Of a stretch of DNA of 64,000 nt, positions 38,972-51,917 are shown one piece after another. This stretch comes from Escherichia coli (GTDB lineage Bacteria > Pseudomonadota > Gammaproteobacteria > Enterobacterales > Enterobacteriaceae), in assembly GCF_003018255.1 (NCBI RefSeq), contig NZ_CP027441.1; one strand, given 5' to 3'. Positions within the stretch are counted from its first letter, which is position 1. Every line of letters starts with the position of its first letter. The notes below the pieces were generated by a model that searched no databases, had not been told where the DNA came from, and was given only the letters and a program-made list of their open reading frames with translations. The position numbers and the translations under genes are program-made.

Positions 38972-39005
38972 AGCCGGTTTTCTCTGAACCGGCTTTTTCT
39001 TTTCA
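38972..39005 (+). terminator. rho-independent terminator after excA
   Basis: AGCCGGTT/AACCGGCT stem followed by TTTTTCTTTTC. Confidence 0.6.
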
Positions 39006-39212
39006 GGCAGAATGCCTGTCTGCCGTCTATCTCAGGACGCCGCATGGAGTCTCTATGTTTTCCCCACAAATTCTTAGCACTGTCTTGCCCACTGTAGACA
39101 AAATCAATACAATTCTGCATATCAGTTATCTATAAAAGATAACAATATCATTATAAATAATTATCATATCCACACACTCAAGGCAGTACCTAGAAAACAT
39201 AAAGATAAAATC

Positions 39213-40799
39213 ATGTCTGAATCCCGCAGCAATTTTCCAGCACGACATGGTACTCCATGGAATACTGAAGAGTTACAGCGTCTTCTCGTATCCATAGCGG
39301 AGGGCCTCTCGCTAAAAAAACTTACTCAAACACATCAACGATCGTCCGGGGGAATACGTGGAGCAATCAAACGCCTGCTTCCTTCTGAGTTTCTTGAGTT
39401 CAACGATATAAACACTGTGAATGATCTCAGCAATTACTTCAACAAGATTCCTCGCCAAGAACACAATAGTATCATCAATAATTTAATATCATTGAGCACT
39501 GCAAAAACAATTGCTCATGATAAAGTTGAAATACAAAAGAATAGTTTTAAACAAAATACCCCACTCCCCCTCTGCCAACCCAATACAGATTTTAAAGATT
39601 ATATAGCCGATGAACATGATGTCATTATGCTAATTCATTCTGCTATCGAAAGTTTATCTAATAAACGACATCAATATATTCTTCTAATGCGACTCGGCAC
39701 AGATGATTCACCTCATTCTCTGGCAGATATTGCCGTCAAATTAGGAATTTCCCGTGAAAGGGTAAGACAACTTCAGGAACGAGCCCTTGGCTTACTAGCT
39801 GCTAAATCTCGCTATGAAGGGACACCTGGAGCTTGCCTTAAAGCCCTTATTAACTCAATAGGTAATTCACCATATGATATAGCAGTATGGATTTATCGTA
39901 TTGTTCATCGGGATTTCGTTACATCCTCTGAGTTAGCCGCCAAATTCATTATTTTTACCGCAGGCATTCCTAAAGCAAGACGAGATGAAATAAAAAATTC
40001 GCTCTCATTAATATCACAATTACAAAAGCAGAGGTTACGTGAACGAAGAGCAGAATTAGCACACGCTCGCGCTCAGGAAAGAGCCCGAATCAAGAAAGAA
40101 AGAGTTGAGTTCATATTCAGTAAATGGCTAGACAATACACATTGGCCAAAATATATCGCACCTCCTCCCCCCGTAGAACAGCTATGTTCACAGAGAGCGG
40201 TTAATGATACTGACATATCTGGATTCTTTTACTCTCAAAAATTAGGTCGTACAGTCCAGTACGAATCAGGGCTTGAGTTTAAAATAATGAATCTATTAGA
40301 ATGTTGCGATCAGGTTCTTTTCTATCAAGAACAACCATTTTCTATTCCATATTGTTTTAAAAACAAATCAAAAAAATACTATCCAGATTTACTCATTGCG
40401 ACAGTTGATGGTCGGTGCCTACTTATGGAAGTGAAGCCAACAGACCGAATGACCTTGAGTCTCACGAGAATAAAAAGTAATGCAGGTCGCAAATGGGCAC
40501 ATACTCGAGGATGGGGATGGTTGGTCATTAGTGATAGGTTCTCGTTACGTCAGCTGGAAGAACATGCCATCTCAACAAACACATGGAAACTTATAGAGGC
40601 TGAACTGAAAACATCAAGGATTTTAGCATGGCGTGAAATGATGGAGTTACGTACACGATACGAGATTCATCGTTTAGATCTTATTGCATATATCATTCAG
40701 TCTGGTGCTGAAGTGGATAACTTTTATCGAATTACCCCGAAAATATCTAATAATACATCTAACCAGAGACAACCAAATGAGAGCAACTGTCATAATTGA
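39213..40799 (+). CDS. multi-HTH DNA-binding protein with C-terminal PD-(D/E)XK nuclease-like domain (528 aa)
   Basis: Low-GC gene; N-terminal Myb/GcrA-like segment (PWNTEELQRLL...GLS...IRGAIKRL); central sigma-70 region-4-like HTH (SLADIAVKLGISRERVRQLQERALGLL); C-terminal E...YYPDLLIATVDG...LMEVKP pattern. Confidence 0.6.
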   Translation: MSESRSNFPARHGTPWNTEELQRLLVSIAEGLSLKKLTQTHQRSSGGIRGAIKRLLPSEFLEFNDINTVNDLSNYFNKIPRQEHNSIINNLISLSTAKTIAHDKVEIQKNSFKQNTPLPLCQPNTDFKDYIADEHDVIMLIHSAIESLSNKRHQYILLMRLGTDDSPHSLADIAVKLGISRERVRQLQERALGLLAAKSRYEGTPGACLKALINSIGNSPYDIAVWIYRIVHRDFVTSSELAAKFIIFTAGIPKARRDEIKNSLSLISQLQKQRLRERRAELAHARAQERARIKKERVEFIFSKWLDNTHWPKYIAPPPPVEQLCSQRAVNDTDISGFFYSQKLGRTVQYESGLEFKIMNLLECCDQVLFYQEQPFSIPYCFKNKSKKYYPDLLIATVDGRCLLMEVKPTDRMTLSLTRIKSNAGRKWAHTRGWGWLVISDRFSLRQLEEHAISTNTWKLIEAELKTSRILAWREMMELRTRYEIHRLDLIAYIIQSGAEVDNFYRITPKISNNTSNQRQPNESNCHN

Positions 40800-40895
40800 T
40801 GACGCACAGGACGGAAAAAATAATAGCTGCCGGACAGCAGCAACCAGCAGTCGTCCGGTAAAAAAGACAAACAAGGCGCATTGAGGTCAGCCTTC

Positions 40896-40914
40896 GCAAC
40901 AATCCGGCGGCAGA
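40896..40914 (+). repeat. orphan shufflon-type site GCAACAATCCGGCGGCAGA
   Basis: First 12 nt identical and 16/19 identical to the reverse-strand reading of the site at 13064-13082; sits in a GC-rich 500-bp spacer between low-GC genes. Confidence 0.45.
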
Positions 40915-41422
40915 TGTCCTGCCGCCGTGTTGCCCGTTAACGTTTAACTTCGTAGGCTAACGTTGCCACAAGCACTGTGTTTCCCTGCTCGACACGGAAT
41001 CCGCAAAGCGAATCCCTCACCATCCAGACAAAACACAGTATCGTCACACAGACGACAATTAACATTGTTAAAAACGTTCGTTGTGGCATCGCAGCCCCTC
41101 CATTGCCTTTCGGCCGTCATCGGGCTACTATAATGTTGTCGATGCATTACAGTAGAGCCCTGGGTTGATTGATAAAAAAATCGCCTGGGGCTTTCTGCTG
41201 CATGCCGTCCACAAAACGCTTTCAGCATACAGCCTCAAGCGCCCGCCGCTATTCTAATCGATTTTCAGTCTGCCACAATCGGTTTCCACCTAATGACATG
41301 TAATGCACAACAGTATTTTTACGGGAAACTACACGGCAAGGACTCCCGGAACACGTTCATTATTTTATGGTTACAGACATCATGTTAAATCCGGAAGTAA
41401 TAATGACCTGAAAGGAAATACT

Positions 41423-41665
41423 ATGAGTAACGAATATCAAAGCACCAGTATAAACCCTGATGTTTTTGAACAATTTCTTACCCTCCTGAATACACACTGT
41501 AAATCATCAGAAGCTGCACTTGCTATGCTGAGTACACTCTGCTACGAACTGATGAGGAGGAGTGGGATCCATTCACTGGACAGCCTGATGCTCAACGGAG
41601 AAGGTATATTGATACAATTACAGGGGGCTGATATTCGCGAAAAAACAGGTCAGCATATTCACTGA
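41423..41665 (+). CDS. hypothetical small protein (80 aa)
   Basis: ATG after AGGAAATACT; track ORF 41303..41665 trimmed; no motif. Confidence 0.4.
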   Translation: MSNEYQSTSINPDVFEQFLTLLNTHCKSSEAALAMLSTLCYELMRRSGIHSLDSLMLNGEGILIQLQGADIREKTGQHIH

Positions 41666-41705
41666 TCCAGGGATGTGCTGAAAACAGTGTCAGCCTGAAA
41701 TAAAC

Positions 41706-41738
41706 GCTCAATGCCTCATACACATGGGGCATTGAGCA
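41706..41738. terminator. bidirectional hairpin between convergent genes
   Basis: CTCAATGCC / GGCATTGAG 9-bp inverted repeat. Confidence 0.45.
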
Positions 41739-41757
41739 CGGTCATCAATAATCTTTA

Positions 41758-50858: not shown

Positions 50859-51170
50859 ATGACATCCCCGGACCTTATACAAGCTGATCTGCACCGAATG
50901 TCCTGGTCTCAGCTGGCAAGAGCTGCGGAAGAGTCGACAGTACATCATGATTATGCCCGGGCGTTAATATTGTGGCGGCATGCATATCATGCCGCCACGC
51001 TGACTATTAATAAAAACCTGGCAACGGCTAAAATCAACTTCTGTGCTAAGCGCATTCTGATGCGTAATCAAATGAGTAAAATAATCAGACATACAGACAC
51101 AGACGAAATACTCTCGCGTCTGAGTAAACACCATCATTTATATGAGAAAAAGAAAACAAAAGAGGGATGA
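50859..51170 (+). CDS. hypothetical protein (103 aa)
   Basis: Clean ORF; His-rich C-terminus; no motif. Confidence 0.45.
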   Translation: MTSPDLIQADLHRMSWSQLARAAEESTVHHDYARALILWRHAYHAATLTINKNLATAKINFCAKRILMRNQMSKIIRHTDTDEILSRLSKHHHLYEKKKTKEG

Positions 51171-51177
51171 CAATCCC

Positions 51178-51246
51178 ATGATATGGGAAAAACTTGCCAT
51201 GCTTACTGCAGGTGCATTTTTGATACTGGCAGTCCTGTGGGGGTAA
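51178..51246 (+). CDS. candidate 22-aa hydrophobic peptide MIWEKLAMLTAGAFLILAVLWG
   Basis: AGAGGGA Shine-Dalgarno 9 nt upstream; followed by a 9-bp-stem hairpin; below the ORF-track cutoff. Confidence 0.3.
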   Translation: MIWEKLAMLTAGAFLILAVLWG

Positions 51247-51312
51247 TAATATCCTGTTTATTAAAGGGCAGAAGGCGGTGCCCCTCTGCCCTTAAGTACG
51301 TTTCCGGGATTA

Positions 51313-51408
51313 TCAGTCAATAAGTTCCCGGATCAGTTCCAGAAGAGCTATCACTGCATTGACCACAGCAACAACTGCCCTGAGAACGATGATTAACAGG
51401 TTAATCAT
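51313..51408 (-). CDS. candidate DinQ/TisB-like type I toxin peptide (31 aa) MINLLIIVLRAVVAVVNAVIALLELIRELID
   Basis: Reverse-strand ORF with GGAG 7 nt upstream; single amphipathic transmembrane helix; ALLELIR matches the C-terminal part of E. coli DinQ as recalled; below the ORF-track cutoff. Confidence 0.5.
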   Translation of the reverse strand: MINLLIIVLRAVVAVVNAVIALLELIRELID

Positions 51409-51479
51409 CCGTTTCTCCGTCAATGGAGGAAATCACTGCTGCTTACTCTTACATTGCCTGTCACAACAGCTCTCTCATT

Positions 51480-51710
51480 GTTAGCTGAAAAGAGACTTCC
51501 TCCGGCCAGGTCTTTGAATAGCACAGATCCATAGTCCCGATGGATTGATGCGAAGGTAAGTCTCCAGACAAGGCTAACTTACTGATTATACTTGTTTCAG
51601 GCGATATCGCTACTCCCGGAATAATAGATTGTAACTGACAGATTGCGATCAGGTGAATATAACGCTATTCTGGTAACGTTAGTTGAAAAGAGACTTCCTC
51701 CGGTCAGAGC
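51480..51710. repeat. two about 30-bp direct repeats GTTAG(C/T)TGAAAAGAGACTTCCTCCGG(C/T)CAG, about 198 bp apart
   Basis: Copies at about 51480-51510 and 51678-51710, upstream (in reverse-strand sense) of the toxin-like ORF. Confidence 0.6.
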
Positions 51711-51734
51711 CACCAACTCCACCCCGGAATCGCA

Positions 51735-51768
51735 AAAAAAACCGGCCTCACCAGTCGGTTTTTTTGTA
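51735..51768. terminator. bidirectional terminator A8-CCG...CGG-T7
   Basis: AAAAAAAACCGGCCTCACCAGTCGGTTTTTTTG: stem flanked by A-run and T-run. Confidence 0.55.
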
Positions 51769-51917
51769 CCTGTCTCCCACCACCTTCTGCCGTTCGCTCT
51801 TCTCAGTGAAAATGTCCTGTTGAACTCATTCCTGTCCGGTTATTACCGGCGCTGATTCGCATTCATGCCACTCGACTTAATCCCGAAATTTATCCATTCA
51901 TCTATGGAGGAATCCCC

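Follow-up and report, generated by a model that had tools for sequence, protein, structure and literature searches.

The 64,000-nucleotide stretch of Escherichia coli DNA considered here (contig NZ_CP027441.1 of RefSeq assembly GCF_003018255.1; hereafter the window) contains a low-GC block at positions 38972–51900, between the entry-exclusion gene excA on its left (38289–38939, plus strand; annotated in a 99.9%-identical record) and trbA on its right (51918–53198, plus strand; annotated as trbA, with an allele of the IncB/O/K/Z type). The block opens with a terminator-like hairpin and T-run of the excA/tra operon (38972–39004, the hairpin itself at 38972–38994; plus strand), which stands 33 nucleotides 3′ of the excA stop (38939), is the top-scoring terminator-like match between 38000 and 52500, and is kept in plasmids both with and without the cassette that comes next. 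This cassette encodes a protein that joins a sigma-70 region 4 to a TnsA-like nuclease domain. It is followed by a hok/sok toxin–antitoxin (TA) locus, a phosphoethanolamine (PEA) transferase gene, the trio of DUF2569, ECs1377, and thermonuclease (nuc) genes, the autotransporter gene epeA, three small open reading frames (ORFs), and the dqlB/AgrB locus. The reading that best accommodates these features, to which we assign a probability of roughly 0.85, is that the block is the variable tra–trb interval of a pO113-type plasmid, in which independent modules were assembled by recombination, and not a single element.

All ORFs listed in the original prediction, which was made from sequence alone, were recovered, namely, a helix-turn-helix (HTH)-nuclease, small ORFs, a sulfatase-family enzyme, a membrane protein, a 207-residue protein, an SNase-like nuclease, a serine protease autotransporter of Enterobacteriaceae (SPATE), and a toxin locus. 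A second type I toxin locus, the hok/sok locus at 40937–41244, also lies within the block and was missing from that list. A scan of the region for promoters and terminators returned no excess over shuffled expectation (34 versus 31.1 promoter-like and 16 versus 12.1 terminator-like matches), and among these predictions the excA hairpin alone was taken as evidence.

Taken as a whole, the block is markedly lower in GC than its surroundings, as had been claimed. Its GC content is 0.430, against 0.531 in the remaining window, and the minimum among all 12.9-kb windows of the 64 kb (0.426) starts at 37201 and thus coincides with the block. In 1-kb windows, GC ranges from 0.36 to 0.43 for most of 38–49 kb, with a single window of 0.50 at 44–45 kb, while the neighbouring tra genes lie at approximately 0.53–0.59. 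The depression is not uniform, however, when GC at third codon positions (GC3) is compared gene by gene. Across 18 long backbone ORFs, GC3 has a mean of 0.57 and a minimum of 0.48, and four genes only, the sigma4/TnsA-like gene (0.30), DUF2569 (0.32), epeA (0.38), and the EptC-like PEA transferase (0.39), are compositionally foreign, all with values below this minimum. ECs1377 (0.56), the hypothetical ORFs of 63 (0.59) and 121 residues (0.51), hok (0.49), and nuc (0.47) look like backbone in their composition.

From sequence identity and gene content, the window is assigned to a pO113-type enterohaemolysin/SubAB virulence plasmid, of which it covers the pil genes, tra, the block, trbABC, nikAB, and the leading region. 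The 18 kb around the block are colinear with pO113 (NC_007365.1) at 99.4% identity over 18,037 alignment columns (99.4–99.6%), and eighteen records match the full length of this 18-kb query at 99.5% or more. The closest, pJNE151685-1 (NZ_AP027259.1), is 99.93% identical over the 18 kb and colinear with the whole window at 99.96–99.98%. Gene content and order between excA and trbA are the same as in pO113, as judged from a single colinear alignment and the annotation tables, and epeA, at its published position in pO113, is shared. The two differ in length by 26–36 bp, and the sigma4/TnsA-like gene, intact in the window, carries a 1-nucleotide frameshift in pO113.

The block is therefore no novelty in itself: it was published in 2003, 2009, and 2013, and its correct identification keeps the published pO113 sequence from passing as a new island. 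The primary description of pO113 (AY258503) reportedly goes back to Leyton in 2003, the source to which Newton refers. The plasmid has been sequenced and set against R64 and ColIb-P9, and its EpeA (48,716–52,795 in pO113) has been presented as an autotransporter specific to the plasmid (Newton 2009; PMC2681110). A "virulence module between trb and tra" is likewise described for pO26-CRL125, pO111-CRL115, and pH2332-107 (Venturini 2013; PMC3817090). These three plasmids share with the window the nuclease cassette, hok, the PEA transferase, DUF2569, ECs1377, nuc, a SPATE gene, the small ORFs, and dqlB, within flanks that are 94–100% identical, and they differ in carrying another SPATE passenger allele and an intact nuc. 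What is new here is the decomposition of the block into modules, the recognition of cargo-poor relatives as derivatives, the EptC-like assignment of the transferase, the dead nuc gene, and a rereading of the product of pCT_066, the counterpart of the sigma4/TnsA-like gene. The block as a whole is a textbook case of a conjugative virulence plasmid keeping its cargo between transfer operons.

The genes traY, trbA, and trbB are 91–99.8% identical to those of plasmids typed as IncK2/Z or IncB/O versus 68–73% to those of R64, and the transfer backbone has a nucleotide identity of 68–72% to R64 and p21249. A trbA of the present type, only 71–72% identical to that of R64, occurs at 90% identity or more in 473 plasmids of PLSDB. 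These identities place the backbone in the IncB/O/K/Z branch of the I-complex, the cluster 2 of an earlier classification (PMC10286972), and not with R64.

The excA–trbA interval measures 2,274 bp in R64 and 2,539 bp in ColIb-P9, where it holds a HEAT-repeat ORF, small ORFs, dqlB (annotated in R64), and hok/pnd; an IncI1 interval with pnd was described by Furuya and Komano in 1996 (as cited in PMC10286972). The position in the transfer region is the same as in the window, and the hok/sok (pnd) and dqlB loci are 86–91% identical to their counterparts here. In R64 and ColIb-P9, however, hok and dqlB stand in the opposite order, the HEAT-repeat ORF and not the nuclease cassette follows excA, the PEA transferase, DUF2569, ECs1377, nuc, and SPATE genes are all lacking, and the flanking tra and trb genes are only approximately 70% identical. 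In the IncB/O/K/Z branch, by comparison, the interval is never R64-like. It spans 3.7 kb in pHB42-5 (hok, DUF2569, ECs1377, nuc, a hypothetical ORF, and dqlB), 5.4–6.3 kb in a Shigella plasmid and pEc15103B, 9.6 kb in NZ_CP027341, and 13.0 kb in pH2332-107 and pO113, so that 3.7–13 kb is standard, and the interval of that lineage already holds the sigma4/TnsA-like gene, hok/sok, DUF2569, ECs1377, the thermonuclease, small ORFs, and dqlB/AgrB. R64 is accordingly the wrong reference, and the IncB/O/K/Z lineage the proper comparator, for pO113-type plasmids.

The original prediction had read the block as an approximately 12.5-kb mosaic insertion, in effect a single island from a low-GC donor that entered an R64-like plasmid. 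It is true that GC drops across the entire interval relative to the sequence on either side, and the expectation that such cargo would be foreign to the R64 map was sound, for R64 and ColIb-P9 are without almost all of it. The genes are thus missing from R64-type plasmids, yet they occupy this very position in pO113, pH2332-107, and others. A single arrival is also at odds with a GC3 that spans 0.30–0.59 inside the block, with modules distributed independently of one another, each in 45 to 295 of the 473 related plasmids, and with the absence of end repeats or duplications; hok/sok and dqlB/AgrB are, moreover, backbone even in R64, and the plasmid backbone itself is not R64-like. The description of the block as a mosaic free of mobility genes and scars holds, whereas the insertion of one island into an R64-like backbone is largely refuted and must now be regarded as very improbable.

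Composition, distribution among the 473 related plasmids, and divergence differ from module to module. The independent modules comprise the nuclease cassette, hok/sok, the PEA transferase, DUF2569–ECs1377–nuc, EpeA, the three small ORFs, and dqlB/AgrB, and their variants arise through homologous-recombination tracts, allele replacement, and deletion. A site between the excA/tra terminator and the trb promoter may tolerate cargo in that insertions there would be non-polar on the transfer genes, and the two TA loci, together with the conserved 5′ and 3′ ends of the SPATE gene, could offer matching sequence through which co-resident plasmids recombine. The four low-GC genes may first have been acquired so long ago that their scars have vanished. 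Several considerations weigh against this account. The order of events is drawn from 8–10 comparator plasmids out of the 473; the existence of two deep haplotypes implies an older and more complex history than the one outlined here; related plasmids carry ISCro1, IS1, IS2, and IS600 inside the interval, so that steps mediated by insertion sequences (ISs) are possible in the original acquisitions; and the permissive site and the homology anchors are features that we infer.

The two deep haplotypes of the interval differ in gene order, with the genes that they share 73–88% identical. On the best reading, this variable interval is long-lived, undergoes recombination, and often gives rise to reduced variants, and there is evidence that the cargo-poor relatives are mostly derivatives by deletion or replacement. 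The Shigella plasmid, for example, lacks 39262–40626 inside the nuclease gene, an internal deletion. Likewise, pHB42-5 lacks approximately 41434–43357 and resumes just upstream of DUF2569; it retains the first 11 nucleotides of an 80-residue ORF (41423–41665, plus strand; annotated in matching records and without a family match), which therefore marks a deletion of approximately 1.9 kb, not an empty site. In NZ_CP027341, what is left of the former excA 3′ end persists behind a replaced excA allele.

The nuclease cassette (39028–40868, plus strand; edges taken from the loci of NZ_CP027341 (L005) and of a further comparator (L010)) shows such recombination. Relative to pEc15103B, identity is 74–78% in the 5′ part of excA, rises to 99–100% at approximately 38600–40800, and falls thereafter to 96% and then to approximately 70%. 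The same segment is 99–100% identical between plasmids whose neighbouring backbones differ by 5–25%. The 3′ third of excA and the nuclease cassette (38600–40800) are thus best described, from these identity profiles, as a homologous-recombination tract that starts inside excA. The cassette is carried by 295 of the 473 plasmids (approximately 60%), and its identity of at least 99% in 290 of the 295, while the neighbouring backbone differs by 5–15%, indicates recent spread by recombination.

It is conceivable that the encoded protein itself drove this spread in the manner of a homing endonuclease, by cutting cassette-free excA–hok junctions into which the cassette would then be copied by repair. 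Such a process would account for near-identity in almost all carriers amid a diverged backbone, for a cassette that always occupies the same site, and for catalytic residues that are invariant in the family. The near-identity tract, however, begins in excA and fits ordinary homologous recombination; cassette-free plasmids present no clean empty target but a different remnant, a 157-bp stub whose start resembles a TacA/DUF1778 antitoxin gene; the chromosomal homologues stand in unrelated contexts; and inactivation of the gene in pCT was without phenotype (PMC4083329). Self-driven homing is for these reasons quite improbable, and exchange of the cassette through flanking homology, as one module among several, is preferred.

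The cassette's single ORF (39213–40799, 528 residues) corresponds to pCT_066 of the epidemic plasmid pCT, annotated as a "putative sigma factor"; the knockout arms designed for pCT_066 map to 39299–39338 and 40444–40483, both inside the ORF. Its inactivation in pCT left stability, conjugation, growth, biofilm formation, and competition unaffected (PMC4083329). Pfam domains were detected at residues 150–193 (Sigma70_r4) and 366–440 (Tn7_TnsA-like_N, of the PD-(D/E)xK type). A bona fide sigma-70 factor was considered and set aside, as region 4 alone, and no region 2, was detected and the remainder is the TnsA-like nuclease. The likeness to TnsA of Tn7 is confined to the nuclease domain, where the E…D…ExK residues are conserved; the window protein differs in its fusion to sigma-70 region 4 and in the lack of Tn7-like ends. 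TnsB, TnsC, and TniQ were found neither in the window nor next to any of seven homologues, whose neighbourhoods include those from Pectobacterium, Xanthomonas, Salmonella, Providencia, Mangrovibacter, and Streptomyces. The protein was therefore also rejected as the mobility factor of the whole block, there being no TnsB or TnsC partners and no element ends. Its TnsA-like domain is the sole transposase-related signature of the block and belongs to neither a Tn7-type element nor a transposon.

The two-domain architecture defines a widespread family. In 19 members, down to 23% identity, there is no variation in E351, D392, E406, K408, or the RERVRQ recognition helix, and the plasmid copy forms a single tight cluster of 1,814 members whose nearest relative is 59% identical. 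The homologues are solo genes, three of the seven directly adjoining defence genes, namely, OLD-TOPRIM with UvrD and McrB (Gabija-like/McrB), SMC with SIR2, and BREX; two further homologues reside on an integrase island and on a plasmid, respectively. Neither a model nor a name for the family was found in PADLOC or in the literature searched, and the PADLOC matches to proteins of the block, SspB (17.5 bits) and an SNase-domain model, all fell short of significance. Literature searches on TnsA, sigma region 4, and defence retrieved only papers on Tn7 and CRISPR-associated transposons (CASTs), and a search combining PF08722 and PF04545 retrieved nothing. Considering the catalytic and recognition residues that are invariant from Enterobacterales to Streptomyces, the always-solo homologues, and the three that sit beside defence genes, the pCT_066-type protein might be, instead of a sigma factor or part of a transposase, a stand-alone, HTH-guided PD-(D/E)xK nuclease directed at phages or rival plasmids, in defence or in conflict between elements, from a recently spread cassette behind excA. 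This proposal is speculative and rather doubtful as it stands, and the defence role in particular is a lead, not a result. Rereading pCT_066 as an HTH-nuclease nonetheless provides a testable hypothesis for a gene with no knockout phenotype.

The PEA transferase (41758–43293, minus strand) is recognized by Pfam Sulfatase (7e-38) and EptA_B_N, and its top match in the PDB is EptC at 83.6 bits, compared with 33 bits for MCR-1. Against all NCBIfam subfamily models it scores under the cut-offs, with 17–28 bits versus 1100–1250 for MCR and 49–76 versus 561–660 for EptA. Identity as an MCR- or EptA-type lipid A transferase was accordingly discarded, the scores lying far under the curated cut-offs and only the generic PEA-transferase fold being matched. 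The enzyme is thus predicted to be EptC/CptA-like rather than MCR-like and, by sequence, is no candidate for colistin resistance. The module is found in 107 of the 473 plasmids. Among 5,426 complete E. coli genomes it is present in 144, and of its 179 places there 178 are plasmid-borne. A literature search for "phosphoethanolamine transferase" together with pO113 returned nothing.

To the right of it lie three genes that travel together. They code for a DUF2569 membrane protein (43494–43949, minus strand; annotated as such), a 207-residue ECs1377-family protein (44037–44660, minus strand; NCBIfam NF052300 at 277.7 bits against a cut-off of 190, and phrog_24243), and a thermonuclease of the SNase type (44819–45322, plus strand). 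The membrane protein had been taken for the partner of the sulfatase-family enzyme, a pairing that does not survive comparison: in pHB42-5 and in an IncF ehx plasmid, both of which lack the PEA transferase, DUF2569 accompanies ECs1377 and nuc. Cargo-poor relatives likewise contain ECs1377, nuc, and the small ORFs. The predicted secreted SNase-like nuclease, for its part, is present as a gene, but as a pseudogene with two in-frame nonsense codons. Compared with the intact 167-residue gene of pH2332-107, codon 129 has changed from GAG to TAG and a later TGG to TGA, leaving an ORF at 44819–45205 of 128 residues, versus 155–167 in relatives. The gene is intact in pH2332-107 and pEc15103B and absent from the coding sequence (CDS) lists of both pO113-type records, the pO113 table omitting pseudogenes.

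The SPATE segment (45430–49880, plus strand) comprises the epeA CDS at 45679–49758 with both flanks and was delimited by its absence from NZ_CP027341. The gene, whose product is a secreted autotransporter of the mucinase type, is intact, and AMRFinder reports epeA at 99.85–100% identity in the matching records (99.85% in the closest). Its translation contains MNKIYSLKYS..., GDSGSP, and EVNNLNKRMGDLRD, and its autotransporter barrel matches TIGR01414 at 237 bits. An extended signal peptide, the GDSGS motif, a linker cleavage site, and a C-terminal β-barrel are all recognizable, as in SPATE proteins, and protease activity is predicted. Within the 473 plasmids, the EpeA passenger occurs in 45 and an alternative SPATE passenger in 49, so that one site hosts two alternative SPATE alleles. 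In pH2332-107, the passenger region at 46050–48537 is replaced by another allele with no megablast-level identity, between an upstream region 95.5% identical to that of epeA, a first 443 nucleotides at 88.7%, a barrel at 87.4%, and a 3′ flank at 100%. The pattern resembles a swap of alleles by way of the conserved ends. In the SPATE-less NZ_CP027341, 140 unrelated bp replace 45430–49880 and the alignment picks up again at 49881, which is 132 bp short of the position (50012) at which the match to the pO157-type espP 3′ flank stops; this suggests SPATE loss or replacement, not a pristine site. On the pO157-type plasmid (L009), the espP barrel region matches the window at 48524–50012, with 98.7% identity over 48916–50012. 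That match runs 254 bp past the stop and into sequence also present in the SPATE-less I-complex plasmid, which hints that espP and epeA share, or have exchanged, their 3′ context.

SPATE genes on other plasmids are commonly flanked by ISs. This background favours a history in which the PEA transferase, epeA, and the nuclease cassette each arrived on an IS-flanked or composite element whose scars were later deleted. The ISCro1, IS1, IS2, or IS600 copies in the interval of relatives would fit such accretion, as would a fragment on the IncF ehx plasmid equivalent to 43165–45575 that abuts an IS3 remnant, and the continuation of the espP 3′ flank into interval sequence beyond the stop. The junctions themselves speak otherwise, however. 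No IS remnant, terminal inverted repeat, or target duplication was found at 39028/40868, 41434/43357, 41664/44064, or 45430/49880, and the repeat search returned only short, chance-compatible matches, apart from a repeat in dqlB/AgrB. No transposase is annotated in the 18 near-identical records, and wherever a polymorphism can be polarized, it is a deletion or a homologous replacement. Neither NCBIfam scans of the principal ORFs nor the PGAP annotation of near-identical records reveals a transposase or integrase gene in the block, in agreement with the original prediction. Accretion by way of ISs is therefore unlikely, although less so than homing or a single insertion, and recombination among independent modules is retained.

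The two type I TA loci stand near the ends of the block and, as noted, belong to the backbone even in R64. The first consists of a hok/pndA-type toxin gene (40937–41089, minus strand; Hok/Gef family annotation in a matching record) and a sok-family RNA match in the hok/sok regulatory region (41087–41244, minus strand; Rfam RF01794 at 119.7 bits against a gathering threshold of 59); the presence of a Hok-family ORF together with a sok-family RNA identifies it as a hok/sok type I system. It is 91% identical to the R64 locus. The pndACB recombineering arm used for pCT has no match in the window within three mismatches, evidence of a different allele, and the locus was therefore named from Rfam and annotation. 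The second consists of dqlB, a DinQ-like type I toxin gene (51313–51408, minus strand; annotated in matching records, the locus being 86% identical to that of R64), an AgrB-like antisense RNA (51679–51767, plus strand; Rfam RF02891 at 51.7 bits against a gathering threshold of 40), and a 30-nucleotide direct repeat (51480–51509 and 51678–51707) that would provide the dqlB/AgrB pairing site. Toxin ORF, AgrB RNA, and repeat are together those of a DinQ/AgrB-like type I system. In NZ_CP027341 (L005), the hok locus is present in tandem triplicate, with units of approximately 720 bp, and dqlB is duplicated (4299–6000 and 11764–12604 of that locus); dqlB is also duplicated in the Shigella plasmid (L007). 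These duplications point to unequal crossing-over at both loci.

Between epeA and dqlB lie three small ORFs of 121, 63, and 103 residues (50265–51170, plus strand), annotated as hypothetical, the last of them ANR-like. Their homologues in plasmids of haplotype A are 72–78% identical and placed elsewhere. The 103-residue ORF (50859–51170), immediately upstream of dqlB in this arrangement, matches ANR_neg_reg, a family of AraC negative regulators, at 27.9 bits, under the cut-off of 32, and could be a small virulence-regulator antagonist.

Outside the block, three other spots in the window vary or depart in composition. At 12819–14237, from the traE homologue to pilV, GC is 0.435 and no rci, the shufflon recombinase gene, is annotated in the matching record, which agrees with the description of the pO113 shufflon as inactive (Cottell 2011). 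At 29672–30411, between the homologues of traU and traT, are two hypothetical ORFs for which R64 has no annotated counterpart; GC dips locally there, to 0.47 in a 1-kb window, and approximately 1 kb between traU and traT is described as variable in this lineage (Venturini 2013; PMC3817090). Finally, a second low-GC gap (56598–57621, GC 0.42) separates trbC from the relaxase gene, in contrast to R64, where trbC and nikB are 36 bp apart, and holds a hypothetical ORF (56723–57025) and an ORF with a TolA C-terminal domain (57123–57554, minus strand).

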